Shown: one piece after another, positions 37,427 through 44,734 of the stretch
Position numbering within the stretch: the stretch's first letter is position 1
Layout: every line of letters starts with the position of its first letter
Program-made: the position numbers and the translations under genes
The notes under the pieces: model-generated
Database searches by the model: none
Told to the model about the DNA's origin: nothing
What the model saw: the letters and a program-made list of their open reading frames with translations, nothing else
DNA from: a virus
Lineage: Duplodnaviria > Heunggongvirae > Uroviricota > Caudoviricetes
Reading direction: 5' to 3' (one strand)
IMG/VR virus record: IMGVR_UViG_2778261094_000010
Span: 1 to 48,461 of that record
DNA: 48,461 nucleotides

Positions 37427-37579
37427 TTATTCAGATTTACGCAGTAAAGGCCGGAGCACGACCAGCGCCATCGCCACCAGCACACCATCTGCCAGCACCG
37501 ACATCAGTCGTCCGGTGAAATCAACCACCACTACCAGAAACAACAGGATGACAGCCAGCACAAGGCGCGCACTTTTCAC
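37427..37579 (-). CDS. Small hydrophobic protein, apparent GTG start overlapping the TerB-like gene stop
   Basis: Unlisted 50-codon ORF (VKSARLVLAVILLFLVVVVDFTGRLMSVL...) between the TerB-like gene and the holin; GTGA overlap with the upstream stop. Confidence 0.3.
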   Translation of the reverse strand: MKSARLVLAVILLFLVVVVDFTGRLMSVLADGVLVAMALVVLRPLLRKSE

Positions 37580-38001
37580 AGGTACTGCTCCAGCGGCAAC
37601 TGCAGCGCCTGCGCAATTTTCTTCAGTTGCGCTTCTTCTTCCTGACCGATACCGTCCTGGTCAGCGATATCCAGACACAGGCACAGCACATTAACTGCAT
37701 CATCAGTACCGGCAACATCAGCCAGCTGACGAAGAGCTTCGGCATTGGCAGAACGCGGCGACGCTTCATAACGGGCGCGGATATTTGCACTCATTTGTGC
37801 AATCTCACCGGAGAACGGCGCAAAGACAGGAAGTGCTGCAATGGTTTTTTCCAGTACCGCGATTTCTTTCGCGTCACAGGTGCCGTCAGCGTATGCAATG
37901 GAGTACGCGCCCCAGACGGTCGCCTCCACTGCGTCACGGTTCTCCATCTTCTTCACTTCGGTAATGGCCTTGCGGGTTTTCTTTTTGAAAATACCAAACA
38001 T
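37576..38001 (-). CDS. TerB-like (tellurite resistance TerB domain) protein
   Basis: 141 aa with TerB-like helical pattern (AYADGTCDAKEIAVLEKTIA ... LCLDIADQDGIGQEEEAQLKKIA); AAAGGAAAAG ribosome-binding site; lies between the tRNA cluster and the lysis genes. Confidence 0.65.
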   Translation of the reverse strand: MFGIFKKKTRKAITEVKKMENRDAVEATVWGAYSIAYADGTCDAKEIAVLEKTIAALPVFAPFSGEIAQMSANIRARYEASPRSANAEALRQLADVAGTDDAVNVLCLCLDIADQDGIGQEEEAQLKKIAQALQLPLEQYL

Positions 38002-38176: not shown

Positions 38177-38253
38177 TGGCGCGTTGTACTGGATTCGAAC
38201 CAGTGACCGATTGCTTAGAAGGCAATTGCTCTGTCCGGCTGAGCTAACAACGC
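38177..38253 (-). tRNA. tRNA-Arg (anticodon UCU)
   Basis: Manual cloverleaf: acceptor GCGTTGT/ACAACGC, anticodon stem ATTGC/GCAAT, loop CUUCUAA, T-loop GGTTCGAATCC, 3' CCA. Confidence 0.85.
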
Positions 38254-38266
38254 AGGGTACAGATAA

Positions 38267-38343
38267 TGGACCGCCATCGAGGACTCGAACCCCGCGCAAC
38301 CAGCTCCGAAGGCTGGCGCTCTATCCTGATGAGCTAATGGCGG
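38267..38343 (-). tRNA. tRNA-Arg (anticodon UCG as parsed)
   Basis: Manual cloverleaf: acceptor CCGCCAT/ATGGCGG, anticodon stem CCAGC/GCTGG, loop CUUCGGA, T-loop GGTTCGAGTCC, 3' CCA. Confidence 0.8.
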
Positions 38344-38350
38344 TATGTGA

Positions 38351-38426
38351 TGGTGGCCCTTGCTGGATTTGAACCAGCGACCTGGCGATTATGAGTCGCT
38401 CGCTCTCACCACTGAGCTAAAGGGCC
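38351..38426 (-). tRNA. tRNA with CAU anticodon (tRNA-Ile2 lysidine type or tRNA-Met)
   Basis: Manual cloverleaf: acceptor GGCCCTT/AAGGGCC, anticodon loop CUCAUAA, T-loop GGTTCAAATCC, 3' CCA; first of three tandem tRNAs in an ileZ-argN-argO-like arrangement. Confidence 0.8.
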
Positions 38427-39675: not shown

Positions 39676-39873
39676 TCACTGCGGAAGGCGTCTGTAACAA
39701 CCGAACTGATAATCTGCCAGACCCGCCATAACAAGCTGGGTCAGGATTAACTGGCAGCGTTCGCGTGAAAGGTAAGTATTCTGCGCAATTTCCCCGACGG
39801 TCGCCGGTTCGGTGACGCTTAATTCATTAAACACCACTCTGGCGGTTTCGGTCATATCCTGCTGTTTTAGCAT
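39676..39873 (-). CDS. Small winged-helix-like DNA-binding protein (hypothetical)
   Basis: 65-codon ORF from MLKQQDMTETARVV with an AAGGGA ribosome-binding site; helix-turn-helix-like segment PATVGEIAQNTYLSRERCQLILTQL. Confidence 0.4.
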   Translation of the reverse strand: MLKQQDMTETARVVFNELSVTEPATVGEIAQNTYLSRERCQLILTQLVMAGLADYQFGCYRRLPQ

Positions 39874-40092
39874 GTCTTTTTCCCTTTTCTGGTTAACGTG
39901 ACATACCAATAACTCTTGTCTAAAAAGCCAGCAAGCTGAAAGACCGGTATTCGCAACCACCAGCGCGTTTAACGTACTGCATCAATTTTCGAGCATAAAA
40001 AGACCGCCTGAGGGCAGCCTTTTTACATTAAAATTAAGTTTTCTTTAACTATGTTGTATGTGAAATTAGCATTCCCTACTGAGTTTATACAA

Positions 40093-40836
40093 CTAATCTG
40101 ACGTCACACGCACCATTATACTTACTAAAGAAAAGTCATCATCAGGTCCGGCTCTCTCTATACGACGCAAAATGCCATTAGAAAACTTCTGACTATTACT
40201 CATCGTATTTGATGTAAATCTGGGGCGTTTTTCCCAAACGTTATGAACCCCATCAGACATGATACACAGATGATATACCCCGTTAATACTAGGTAAATCT
40301 TTCCATGTGATAAAATCACAGTCGTATTCCATATCAACATTTGAGGCTATAGCCGTCGTTAAGATATTTTTGCCCGGTTTATCCTTCAAATCTCTGGGTT
40401 TAAAAATATTCTGATCAATTAGCATCTGATGCCTGGTATCGTCCTTCGTCAATTGGTATGCTTTCTTCTCTCCAATGCAATACAAACGACAATCACCAAT
40501 ATGACCAATAATAATTCCGCTATCACAAACATAACAAAACGTAAGTGTAGTAGCAGCTTTATCGAACTCATCATTAACATCAGCTAACGACATAACCTTT
40601 CGCTTAACTTCATCAAATACATCCGGAACTGTGTCAAAAGATAAGCTTGTCAATGCTGAAAGTTCAGCAATTGCCATTGATGAAGCCTGACTGGCACCAG
40701 TGTATGAACCTACACCATCAGCTACGGCAAATAAGATGCCATCCCCTACAATTTTGGGAGGAAGCAATGAATCTTCGTTGACCCTACCTGGTTCTTTTGG
40801 ATACGAGAATGATGAAGTCGCTATCAGCTGAATCAT
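40093..40836 (-). CDS. PP2C-family Ser/Thr protein phosphatase
   Basis: PP2C metal-binding motifs (NED, FAVADGVGS, GDCR, MSDGV); ATG overlaps the kinase stop (ATGA); AT-rich codon usage. Confidence 0.85.
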   Translation of the reverse strand: MIQLIATSSFSYPKEPGRVNEDSLLPPKIVGDGILFAVADGVGSYTGASQASSMAIAELSALTSLSFDTVPDVFDEVKRKVMSLADVNDEFDKAATTLTFCYVCDSGIIIGHIGDCRLYCIGEKKAYQLTKDDTRHQMLIDQNIFKPRDLKDKPGKNILTTAIASNVDMEYDCDFITWKDLPSINGVYHLCIMSDGVHNVWEKRPRFTSNTMSNSQKFSNGILRRIERAGPDDDFSLVSIMVRVTSD

Positions 40837-41597
40837 GACTCACTCCTTAAAAAAGAATGCACAAAATCAAACGCCACATCATCTATTGTCTGATATCTAT
40901 CATCTTTATCCATCCTGGTACACTTCGCTATGATAGGCTTTATTTTTTTATCATCTAAATTTAAGTCCTCAATTAACCGCCCCACCGCATAAACATCAGT
41001 CTTAACTGAATACTCGGCATTATATAAAATCTCGGGAGCCATATATCTTGTACTTCCCATACGGGTACCGATCTCGGTCAATTTAGTGGTATCCCCTTCG
41101 GGATTTGTATCTTTTACCAGACCAAAATCAGACACCTTGTATGTTCCGTCGCTAAATCGCAAGACATTAAATGGTTTTATATCTCTGTGTAAATAGCCTT
41201 TCGCATGGATGTGAGCTACACCATCTAATACCATTTTCACTATTGAAATTTTTTGATCTGTTGTAAGAAGGTTGTTCGTTATTTCGTGCTCAAGATCACA
41301 TTCTGCTTTATCCATAATGAACCATGGATTCTCGGCAAACAAATCGCACAAATAAATAGGAACAATATTGCTATGTACGCAATGTGATTGATACACGACC
41401 TCCCTTTTAAAACGCCTTCTAAACTGCTCTATTTGCGCCAAAAGCTCTGGTTTTTCGGGGGCTAAAACCTTTCTAGCATAATCCCCACATTCACCCTTGT
41501 TGAGGTTGTAAACCTTAACGTGTTCAACAAAGCCAAATGCACCCCTTCCAATCAACTGAATTCGTTTTATAAAGTAATTACCGTGCTGTTCTTCCAT
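40833..41597 (-). CDS. Hanks-type Ser/Thr protein kinase (kinase domain only)
   Basis: Complete kinase subdomain set: glycine loop GRGAFGFV, catalytic Lys in YARK, HRDIKPFNV, DFG, TRYMAPE, DVYAVG. Start assigned to the ATG at 41597 (MEEQHGNYF). Confidence 0.85.
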   Translation of the reverse strand: MEEQHGNYFIKRIQLIGRGAFGFVEHVKVYNLNKGECGDYARKVLAPEKPELLAQIEQFRRRFKREVVYQSHCVHSNIVPIYLCDLFAENPWFIMDKAECDLEHEITNNLLTTDQKISIVKMVLDGVAHIHAKGYLHRDIKPFNVLRFSDGTYKVSDFGLVKDTNPEGDTTKLTEIGTRMGSTRYMAPEILYNAEYSVKTDVYAVGRLIEDLNLDDKKIKPIIAKCTRMDKDDRYQTIDDVAFDFVHSFLRSES

Positions 41598-41669
41598 TAA
41601 GCTCACCGACCTAAATTGTAAGAATATCCATATCTTACAACTACAGATAAAAAGGTCCACAGAGTTAAG

Positions 41670-41695
41670 CAAAAAACCCGCATTTAAGCGGGTTT
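41670..41695 (-). terminator. Rho-independent terminator downstream of the Q-like gene (possible tR'-like site)
   Basis: Hairpin ACCCGC-ATTTAA-GCGGGT followed on the minus strand by a T6 run, about 50 bp after the Q-like stop. Confidence 0.6.
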
Positions 41696-41741
41696 ACACA
41701 CTATACGGCAAAATATCACATTTACATAAAATGTATGCGAT

Positions 41742-42437
41742 TTAATTGACTTTTGCAATATCTCGTCGTGAAAAGGTCGCTTTTTGTTGCGATCTCATTT
41801 TCACGGTGCAAATCAAGGATTCTGTATCGAGTTTCTTAAAAATGTCGCACATCTCACGCCAGTAGTTCGCATAATTATGGCTCCAGTTGTCAGGCTTAAC
41901 TCCACACAGTCTGGCAAGTTCCTGTCGCTGGTAGACGTCACGCCCAGTAATCCTCCCCCTGACATCCTGCGCCGCCAGCCAGATTAATTTCTTCAGACGC
42001 TCAAGCGTTTTCCCTGTAATTTTTCTGGTGCCAAAATGCACCTGAAACTTATCCCACGCCCATTTCGCAATGACCACCTGATAATCCCAACTCGGATTTT
42101 CACTGTATACCCACAGCACCCACGCCTTCTGATGCTCTTCAAGAGACAGAACGGCGCGTCGCCATGATGATGTCGAAAACTCAACCGGACTGACCAGGGC
42201 AATTGATGAACCTTTCGCCAGCGATTGCTTTCCCGGGATCGGTGGATTATCCAGCGTTACCATTTTTCCAGTGACCTTATCGCGGTACCGGATTTTTTTA
42301 CGTCTGTAACGCCCTGTATCAAACATGGCATTCTCCTGCCAGGCTTCAAGCTGACCTTTTGTTGCCCCACTCAAATCGGCGGTGGCGATAATGAGCTGCT
42401 CACGAACAAACTGTAAATACTGGTTATTCATGCGCAC
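41742..42437 (-). CDS. Putative late-gene antiterminator Q-like protein
   Basis: 231 aa basic protein directly after rusA and directly before an intrinsic terminator and the late-region morons; assignment rests mainly on conserved lambdoid gene order. Confidence 0.45.
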   Translation of the reverse strand: MRMNNQYLQFVREQLIIATADLSGATKGQLEAWQENAMFDTGRYRRKKIRYRDKVTGKMVTLDNPPIPGKQSLAKGSSIALVSPVEFSTSSWRRAVLSLEEHQKAWVLWVYSENPSWDYQVVIAKWAWDKFQVHFGTRKITGKTLERLKKLIWLAAQDVRGRITGRDVYQRQELARLCGVKPDNWSHNYANYWREMCDIFKKLDTESLICTVKMRSQQKATFSRRDIAKVN

Positions 42438-44287: not shown

Positions 44288-44443
44288 TTACTCCTCAGGT
44301 TCGTAAGCTGTGAAGACAGCGACCTCCGTCTGGCCGGTTCGGATTCGTACCTCGCAGAGGTCTTTCCTCGTTACCAGTGCCGTCACTATGACGGTTAAAC
44401 AGATGACGATCAGGGCGATTAACATCGCCTTTTGCTGCTTCAT
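44288..44443 (-). CDS. hokD: Hok/Gef-family type I toxin (HokD/RelF-like small membrane toxin)
   Basis: 51 aa MKQQKAMLIALIVICLTVIVTALVTRKDLCEVRIRTGQTEVAVFTAYEPEE: single transmembrane helix plus conserved Cys and EVAVF motif of Hok proteins; GGAGA ribosome-binding site before the ATG at 44443; an in-frame N-terminal extension exists in the longer listed ORF. Confidence 0.8.
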   Translation of the reverse strand: MKQQKAMLIALIVICLTVIVTALVTRKDLCEVRIRTGQTEVAVFTAYEPEE

Positions 44444-44734
44444 AGCCTGCTTCTCCTTGCCTTTCGGCACGTAAGAGGCTAACCTACATTTGTGAGACAT
44501 AGATTGGGCCTCAGATTAATGTTAAGCGTCGTGCAGGACGCGTAATGTTAACTGGGGCTTTTCTCTATCTGCCTTTTGGTGTTCATGCCTGAGACAGATA
44601 GCCTCAAGCACCCGCAGTCATTCTACTTAACTAAGATTTCCCCGCAAACCGTTTTTATCCCCAGCTGCAAATCGAATACACAACAAGTGCTGCCGCCATT
44701 GCAATTCCTGTCGTTGTGAATGCCTCCGGCCAGG

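Follow-up and report, generated by a model that had tools for sequence, protein, structure and literature searches.

A Hanks-type kinase and PP2C phosphatase pair carried as cargo between Q and the methylase/tRNA block of a lambdoid prophage

The window, by which we mean the whole 48,461-nucleotide stretch analyzed here (positions 1 to 48,461 of the IMG/VR virus record IMGVR_UViG_2778261094_000010, Caudoviricetes), carries a gene for a compact Ser/Thr protein kinase followed directly by a gene for a PP2C-family phosphatase. The pair lies on the minus strand at 41597..40093, and the coordinates given for it by an initial annotation of the sequence proved exact. Every gene in this region has that same orientation. 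The pair itself comprises three features:

40833..41597, minus strand: Hanks-type Ser/Thr protein kinase gene; ATG at 41597, stop ending at 40833; 765 bp, 254 amino acids, catalytic domain only.
40093..40836, minus strand: PP2C/PPM-family Ser/Thr phosphatase gene; ATG at 40836, stop ending at 40093; 247 amino acids.
40843..40848, minus strand: strong Shine-Dalgarno sequence for the phosphatase, AAGGAG, inside the 3' end of the kinase gene.

The stop codon of the kinase gene and the start codon of the phosphatase gene share a 4-nucleotide overlap, ATGA. The kinase was positively identified by Pfam as a Pkinase family member (PF00069; E value of 2e-33, 116.4 bits against a cutoff of 31.7), and Pkinase and PK_Tyr_Ser-Thr are its only matches in that database. 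A Pfam search found no domain beyond the catalytic core, and no sensory or DNA-binding domain, in either the kinase or the phosphatase. Alignment with 26 homologs (39 to 75% identity), and again with 34, showed the Hanks catalytic residues to be invariant or nearly so: G17/G19 of the glycine loop, K43 of β3, E66 of αC, H137-R138-D139, K141, N144, D157-F158-G159, E189 of the APE motif, D201 of subdomain IX, and R234 of subdomain XI. The AF2 model (pLDDT of 89.9) forms a single domain with the full bilobal kinase fold, in which only the activation loop (residues ∼162 to 178) is uncertain. Foldseek aligned it with PknB and with eukaryotic kinases at TM scores of 0.74 to 0.81, and the closest solved structures are those of PknB (4EQM, 1MRU, and 5U94). 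The catalytic loop, HRDIKPxN, is of the Ser/Thr type; since many tyrosine kinases are found among the structural neighbors of the model, dual specificity may be possible. The protein was initially annotated as a kinase-domain-only Hanks kinase with all of its catalytic motifs, and the profile search, the alignments, and the model agree; the careful alignment uncovered no degeneration of the catalytic residues.

The phosphatase matches PP2C_2 (PF13672) at 2e-14 (54 bits against a cutoff of 24), with a score for PF00481 (17.7 bits) that falls under the cutoff of 20.3. The metal-binding aspartates of motifs I, II, VIII, and XI (D22, D40-G41, D195-G196, and D233-D234) are invariant in alignments with 25 and with 40 homologs, as are the other signature positions G43, T96/T97, H112-x-G114-D115-x-R117, and D132. 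The AF2 model (pLDDT of 93.7, pTM of 0.91) adopts the PP2C β-sandwich fold, and its nearest structures are Stp1 from Staphylococcus aureus and Streptococcus agalactiae, PstP from Mycobacterium tuberculosis, and tPphA (TM scores of 0.75 to 0.78, Foldseek probability of 1.00); solved structures close to the phosphatase are PstP 1TXO/2CM1, Stp1 2PK0/5F1M, tPphA, and PppA. The annotation of this gene as a genuine PP2C was thus upheld by profile, conserved residues, and predicted structure alike. The subfamily is small and well delimited, with 19 representatives (50% clustering) at E ≤ 1e-30 among 1.84 billion proteins.

Both genes are maintained by selection. Comparison with the allele of Escherichia coli ML35 and with a 94%/82%-identical relative gave dN/dS values of 0.037 and 0.03 for the kinase and of 0.12 and 0.087 for the phosphatase. 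By residue conservation and modeled fold, the two enzymes look catalytically intact and active, and both are under purifying selection. These data also bear on whether the pair might be decaying or nonfunctional passenger DNA, or chance ORFs. Foreign, AT-rich DNA and the broken kinases found at some related loci would suit that explanation, which is effectively refuted by dN/dS values of 0.03 to 0.12, by the invariant catalytic residues, and by occurrence at more than 80 loci across many genera.

The genes are already catalogued individually: PHROGs places the kinase in phrog_2361 (“serine-threonine kinase”) and the phosphatase in phrog_5650 (“unknown function”), and the PGAP/RefSeq names for both are generic. 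The phrog_5650 profile has 565 positions, to which the phosphatase aligns only at 273 to 520; phrog_5650 may therefore hold kinase-PP2C fusions or read-through gene calls. Full-text literature searches found no paper on the two-gene pair, and neither DefensePredictor nor the paper on P2/P4 hotspots covers it. As far as these searches show, the two-gene module is apparently undescribed, as the initial annotation had supposed.

We scanned IMG/VR for relatives of the kinase and retained 80 viral contigs with homologs of 36 to 100% identity, and the addition of Escherichia phage Flotzy and Cronobacter phage phiES15, both temperate isolates with pairs at 40 to 45% identity, gave 82 loci. In 81 of them, down to a kinase identity of 36%, the kinase gene is followed directly by a same-strand PP2C homolog; the single exception ends at a contig edge. 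The start-stop overlap singled out in the initial annotation is real and conserved, as 62 of the 81 junctions show the same ATGA, the others being spaced by −1 to +4 nucleotides or reflecting earlier starts chosen by the ORF caller. Flotzy and phiES15 are the only carriers among 50,697 phage records, and across those records and IMG/VR the pair was found only in temperate phages or prophages and never in virulent phages. The two genes are likewise adjacent in Pseudomonas putida, on a genomic island, and in Vibrio vulnificus, on the margin of a prophage. Members of both protein families, always ∼245 to 260 amino acids long, occur in Enterobacterales, Pasteurellaceae, Vibrionaceae, Aeromonas, Pseudomonas, Acinetobacter, and Xanthomonas. 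A scan of genome contigs with the kinase alignment was uninformative: it responded to generic motifs (HRDxKPxN and SDFGL), and unrelated kinases were among the matches listed. Occurrence in 50 of 5,426 E. coli genomes and at more than 80 phage or prophage loci puts the association of the two genes far beyond chance, and we conclude that the pair is an obligate, horizontally mobile two-gene unit of temperate phages.

The P. putida copies (L168, 10357 to 11880, and L169, 2995 to 4518) are followed by a gene for a 507-amino-acid PNP_UDP_1 (nucleoside phosphorylase-like) protein; the island holds transposases and an integrase, and its context may be defense-island-like. The V. vulnificus copy (L170, 6001 to 7493) lies at the edge of a prophage in which the far gene encodes P2_N/P2_C coat protein domains. 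Because that prophage is corticovirus-like, the cassette is not confined to tailed lambdoid phages.

The boundaries of the inserted DNA in the window were determined by BLAST against corresponding alleles that lack the pair or hold other cargo. The features of the insert and its surroundings are as follows:

41742..42437, minus strand: Q antiterminator gene, the left backbone (PF06323, Phage_antiter_Q, 5.2e-84).
41707..41741, minus strand: conserved Q-proximal segment (…GATATTTTGCC); left recombination junction, which matches the empty-site and other-cargo alleles at ∼90% identity as far as 41707.
40025..41706, minus strand: the inserted cassette at its full extent, 1,682 bp, ∼38% GC, from BLAST against empty and alternative-cargo sites.
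41674..41695, minus strand: upstream intrinsic terminator (AAACCCGC…GCGGGTTTTTT), from a terminator scan; RNA fold of −14.2 kcal/mol, z of −3.5.
41614..41642, minus strand: AT-rich palindrome or hairpin in the kinase leader (TTGTAAGATAT-GG-ATATTCTTACAA), from reading of the sequence; predicted-hairpin fold z of only −1.2.
39995..40026, minus strand: downstream intrinsic terminator, part of the backbone; RNA fold of −18.3 kcal/mol, z of −4.1.
39676..39960, minus strand: small backbone ORF outside the cassette (phrog_331 at 8e-44), also present in empty sites.

Upstream of the pair, genes for RusA and a DUF968 protein precede Q. On the 3' side lie, in order, the small ORF, an N6/N4 DNA methyltransferase gene, three tRNA genes, a TerB-like ORF, and holin and endolysin genes. 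Placement of the pair between Q with its terminator and the methyltransferase/tRNA block, as first annotated, was thus borne out by Pfam and by the terminator scan. The GC content is 0.37 to 0.40 over ∼39800 to 41800, compared to 0.50 to 0.55 in the flanks. Near-identical DNA was absent from the phage and plasmid collections; a 1,751-bp region covering the pair is found in 50 of the 5,426 complete E. coli genomes (about 1%), always on the chromosome, in two allele groups of ≥99% and ∼95.7% identity. Enterotoxigenic E. coli (ETEC) strains such as E24377A are among the carriers, and the E. coli matches are enriched in human enterotoxigenic isolates.

Related prophages differ in what they hold at this position. 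E24377A and ML35 carry the pair in the shared order Q (“bacteriophage antitermination protein Q” in RefSeq), kinase, PP2C, small ORF, methylase, tRNAs, and lysis genes. Strain SMN197SH3 (L165) has the same Q and methylase without the pair, and its small ORF starts 212 nucleotides after Q. In strain 300444 (L166), the slot that matches 40025 to 41706 of the window is occupied by two unrelated hypothetical genes (L166, 2519 to 3550), which encode proteins of 265 and 75 amino acids (WP_000263274 and WP_001127354). Aligned with the L165 and L166 alleles, the window gives 41707/41706 and 40025/40024 as the insert junctions, with the match to the empty site starting again at 40024. The adjacent methylase, being present at the empty site, belongs to the backbone. 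Because L166 holds a different two-gene cargo, the Q-proximal slot is a recombination hotspot for accessory genes. The suggestion that the pair is AT-rich acquired cargo therefore stands, on the comparison of empty and alternatively filled sites and on the GC profile: the pair is an acquired, AT-rich cargo cassette that fills a variable slot, with Q on one side and the small-ORF/methylase/tRNA backbone on the other, and it is conserved at the same locus in some related prophages (E24377A and ML35) and absent from others (SMN197SH3 and 300444).

The general layout resembles the Stx/cargo slot of lambdoid phages (Q, terminator, methylase, tRNAs, cargo, and lysis genes), with which the window shares its backbone, an Ile/Arg/Arg tRNA trio, and a late-operon neighborhood; nanS-p is present in ML35, and any cargo in that slot is under Q control. 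The window differs in that its cargo is a pair of signaling enzymes, with no toxin gene, and lies upstream of the methylase and not downstream of the tRNAs. Several further genes of the prophage were noted. ARAGORN reads the tRNA trio (38177 to 38426, minus strand) as Met(CAT), Arg(TCG), and Arg(TCT); in the related prophages, the tRNA with the CAT anticodon is annotated by RefSeq as tRNA-Ile of the lysidine type. Stx phages have their ileZ-argN-argO cluster at this position, where E24377A carries Ile/Thr/Gly tRNAs instead. The TerB-like ORF (37576 to 38001, minus strand; PF05099, 1e-7), flanked by the tRNAs and the holin genes, is a pseudogene with an internal stop in SMN197SH3. RefSeq labels the small backbone ORF a 65-amino-acid hypothetical or TrmB-like protein. 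A complete hok/sok type I toxin-antitoxin locus is found in the nin region of the same prophage (44288 to 44613, minus strand), with a Hok-family ORF (PF01848, 3e-23), called hokD by RefSeq in related prophages, and a sok RNA (Rfam RF01794, 120 bits against a gathering score of 59).

Lambdoid phages have their late promoter and Q-loading site just downstream of Q, and we take the segment at 41707..41741 to be the presumed late promoter and initial transcribed region. A motif resembling GATATGTTGCC stands before the post-Q terminator in phage Flotzy, and the terminator at 41674..41695 is homologous to that post-Q terminator. The terminator at 39995..40026 corresponds to the first terminator after Q in empty-site prophages, and both flanking terminators consist of a hairpin followed by a U-tract. 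Since the cassette lies directly behind Q and between two intrinsic terminators, Q-modified late transcription should read through it. The pair would thus be promoter-proximal cargo of the late transcript, insulated by a terminator without Q and read through with Q. The same terminator/Q control logic governs stx in Stx phages.

This arrangement would suit a role in the lytic cycle, in which the pair would be expressed late under Q for host takeover or counterdefense, the kinase acting on RNA polymerase, nucleases, or defense proteins and the phosphatase limiting or timing its action. Such a role fits the location of the pair, which follows Q and its terminator directly and has the orientation of the late genes, and the kinase of T7, which disarms defense systems by promiscuous phosphorylation (bioRxiv 10.1101/2024.12.20.629319), provides a precedent. 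The T7 kinase is an early gene, however, and late expression would be ill timed for counterdefense; the module, moreover, was seen only in temperate phages and prophages and in no virulent phage.

The surroundings of the pair in other phages are relevant to the same question. We classified by Pfam the two nearest upstream neighbors at 60 nonredundant loci, several E. coli loci among them being close relatives. Q antiterminators were found at 15 loci (12 PF06323 and 3 PF03589), phage lysozymes at 10, Rz at 5, S24 (CI/LexA-type) repressors at 7, and short CI-type helix-turn-helix repressors at 4; Cro-like and N-peptide proteins were also among the upstream neighbors, and small and large terminase subunits, holins, and methylases were among those downstream. 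At L110/L112/L113, L144, and L155 an S24 repressor gene divergent from cro is followed immediately, in the same orientation, by the pair, and the same arrangement was found with short CI repressors at L106/L107/L127. In lysogens, rexAB of λ and stk of 933W are cotranscribed with cI, and they exclude other phages (PMC3564112); the cI-downstream copies of the pair occupy exactly this rexAB/933W stk position. Present after Q, in the gap between lysis and terminase genes, and downstream of cI, the cassette uses all three classical lambdoid accessory slots. The 15 nonredundant loci after Q and at least 10 after lysis genes favor a lytic role, which is difficult to reconcile with the ∼11 loci in a cI operon, silent in lytic growth; an obligatory antagonist with a stronger ribosome binding site is also hard to fit to a simple takeover enzyme. 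We consider a lytic function unlikely on balance.

That antagonist is favored over the kinase in its translation signals. The AAGGAG of the phosphatase gives a duplex with the anti-Shine-Dalgarno sequence of −8.7 kcal/mol, compared to −5.3 kcal/mol for the weak GGTGAG of the kinase, and the phosphatase signal is the stronger one in all 30 distinct cassettes (means of −8.6 and −4.1; Wilcoxon P = 1.7e-6). Decay is also one-sided. A broken kinase accompanies an intact phosphatase at four loci, by a frameshift at residue 218 (L098), a deletion and frameshift at residues 44 to 48 (L099), an in-frame stop (L129), and a C-terminal truncation (L157), whereas an intact kinase with a broken phosphatase was found at none of the loci examined, L160 being rearranged and uninterpretable. 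This direction of decay is the one predicted for a toxic kinase with a protective phosphatase.

The best reading of the pair, which we hold tentatively and rate at somewhat less than an even chance, is that it may be a minimal phosphorylation-based (type VII-like) toxin-antitoxin or exclusion module. It draws on the intact enzymes and their purifying selection, the obligate pairing, the stronger Shine-Dalgarno sequence of the phosphatase, and the one-sided decay; and equally on the cargo status, the placement downstream of cI, the temperate-only distribution, and the precedents of KKP and 933W Stk described below. The same architecture and decay could be produced by a purely selfish addiction cassette, stabilizing itself or its prophage by postsegregational killing with no antiphage benefit, and the hok/sok module in the same prophage would be in keeping with this. 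A chromosomal prophage gains little from postsegregational killing, however, and the known prophage kinase toxin-antitoxin modules proved to be defensive; addiction alone strikes us as improbable.

The closest functional analogy is KKP (PfpC-PfkB-PfkA), a prophage kinase-kinase-phosphatase system that acts in both toxin-antitoxin and defense roles (Guo et al. 2024, PMC11341870). Its PP2C, PfpC, is the antitoxin and is inhibited by T4 Gp59, and its kinases, which form the toxin side, phosphorylate many essential host proteins (PMC11341870). Like the pair, KKP is borne by prophages of Gram-negative temperate phages and combines Hanks-type kinase and PF13672 PP2C genes in one operon. It is a triplet in the order PP2C, FHA-kinase (PfkB), and CSD-kinase (PfkA), with genes of 900 to 1,300 bp, found in P2, P4, Mu, and Pf elements, whereas the pair has a single 765-bp kinase gene followed by the PP2C gene and resides in lambdoid phages. 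Having a single kinase, neither an FHA nor a CSD domain, and the reverse gene order, the pair is set apart by the description of KKP itself, and we rejected membership.

KKP also controls induction of the Pf prophage through phosphorylation of MvaU (PMC11341870), a precedent for a further explanation, lysogenic conversion, in which the balance of the two enzymes would set how far a host regulator (an H-NS-family silencer, for instance) is phosphorylated and thereby tune induction or host traits. The location of the pair next to the cI/cro switch in several phages and the enrichment in human enterotoxigenic isolates among the E. coli matches would be expected for such a regulator. A sensory or DNA-binding domain, however, is lacking from both proteins, and three unrelated positions in elements as different as lambdoid phages, a corticovirus-like prophage, and a transposon-flanked island argue against wiring specific to one phage. 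A regulatory role is, in our estimate, quite unlikely.

The second precedent, 933W Stk, is described as a eukaryotic-like kinase carried as cargo by a lambdoid E. coli prophage, where it aborts HK97 infection, and it was reported as a tyrosine kinase (Tyler 2004; Friedman 2011; as cited in PMC3564112). Both are accessory kinases of lambdoid phages, and some relatives of the pair share the cI-downstream position of Stk; Stk is a single gene behind cI, with which it is cotranscribed from PRM, while the window kinase lies behind Q with a PP2C partner. Among the phage records, no PP2C homolog was found in Stx phages. The identity between the two kinases is 25.7% over 68% of the window kinase (E value of 5e-7), and orthology was rejected.

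Chromosomal kinase/phosphatase systems provide the closest solved structures and the same logic of a cognate phosphatase: PknB/PstP of M. tuberculosis, Stk1/Stp1 of staphylococci and streptococci, and PpkA/PppA of Pseudomonas aeruginosa. In PknB/PstP, the cognate phosphatase reverses phosphorylation of the kinase activation loop. These kinases have sensor parts (PASTA domains, FHA partners, and transmembrane segments) and belong to core-genome circuits; the window kinase has no such parts. All NCBIfam equivalog scores for the pair are far under their cutoffs, with Stk1 at 104 against 450 and Stp1 at 93.5 against 230. A secreted effector kinase of the LegK1 type was rejected likewise (49.9 bits against 550). 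Methylation-associated defense (MADS) was considered because mad6 was a top match and a methylase gene is adjacent, and was rejected, as the MAD6 score is 66.7 bits against 460 and the methylase is present at empty sites.

If the pair is a toxin-antitoxin or exclusion module, it might work as follows. The kinase would activate itself by autophosphorylation of its activation loop, as PknB-type kinases do, and once active would phosphorylate many host or phage proteins, to the harm of the cell. Phosphatase coproduced in excess would keep the kinase and its substrates dephosphorylated. If a rival phage blocks the phosphatase, titrates it, or upsets the balance in another way, it would release the kinase, which would then arrest the cell and abort the infection, so that rival phages are excluded to the benefit of the prophage, as with KKP and 933W Stk. 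In the window prophage, the lysogen would have to express the pair by leakage through the terminator or from a weak promoter within the cassette, and induction would bring a Q-driven burst.

Several observations weigh against this reading. A consensus scan found no σ70 promoter before the cassette, and the best candidate by position weight matrix (PWM), TGGACC-16-TAAGAT, ending 34 nucleotides before the ATG, is not significant, as 57 of 200 shuffled sequences score equally. The window copy, moreover, lies behind a terminator in the late operon. With no promoter better than shuffles and a terminator upstream, expression in the lysogen, which defense needs, can only be presumed, and this is the chief weakness of the reading. 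At least 25 of the ∼60 loci are in late-transcribed positions, after Q or lysis genes, which equally suits a function in the lytic cycle. The one-sided decay amounts to four events only (P ≈ 0.06 for equal targets). In PADLOC, the matches are to the kinase domain (PD-T4-6 at 1e-34; Stk2 at 5e-28, over profile positions 160 to 347 of 500; and mad6, over 51 to 243 of 659), and the phosphatase has no meaningful match. The interpretation as a whole is inferred.

As a consequence of these PADLOC matches, annotation pipelines may label the kinase PD-T4-6 or Stk2. Stk2 from Staphylococcus epidermidis and PD-T4-6 from E. coli are single-protein systems with extra regions and no obligate PP2C partner, and the pair differs from them in these respects. 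The promoter results also qualify the initial description of the pair as a moron: insertion between genes that are adjacent in L165 and the flanking terminators agree with the term, but no promoter of its own stood out, the σ70 scan being no better than shuffles. PWM scoring of 40 cassette leaders was likewise not significant (mean z of 0.3). A weak site recurs at a similar place in many divergent cassettes, which is suggestive only; in the window, this candidate overlaps the palindrome region at 41614..41642. The leader hairpin and a possible fold sequestering the ribosome binding site did not stand out either, by the z value listed above. Allele L093 alters both arms of the palindrome, a G-C becoming T·G. 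The leaders of L003, L118, L124, L131, L137, L139, L158, and L159 share elements ∼30 to 90 nucleotides before the kinase ATG, comprising GTCAATAGC…TGTAAAT/TAGTAAT motifs and flanking inverted repeats. These may serve as a promoter, an operator, or an RNA hairpin, although fold and promoter statistics are not significant.

A more far-reaching form of the toxin-antitoxin reading is that the pair is a two-gene immune module distinct from KKP, hopping between the cI operon, the Q-proximal slot, and the lysis-terminase gap, whose kinase would be unleashed in a burst by prophage induction. We regard this as possible, though rather doubtful. If it is true, the induction-linked burst could serve competition between prophages, altruistic shutdown, or exclusion of incoming phages.

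To our knowledge, kinase-based antiphage immunity is known from few systems: 933W Stk, staphylococcal Stk2, PD-T4-6, and the three-gene KKP. If the toxin-antitoxin reading is true, the pair would be the simplest phosphorylation-based toxin/antidote unit, two bare catalytic domains with no sensors, and a tractable model for how a phage trigger frees a kinase and which phosphorylations stop the cell. Should its function be late and lytic instead, it would be the first kinase/phosphatase pair for host reprogramming by a lambdoid phage. Carriage of the pair is widespread, extending over temperate phages of Enterobacterales, Vibrio, Pseudomonas, Pasteurellaceae, and further groups. For this reason, and because it occurs in ETEC and in a Q-controlled neighborhood of the Shiga toxin type, its activity could affect phage therapy, competition between prophages, and the physiology of induced pathogens.

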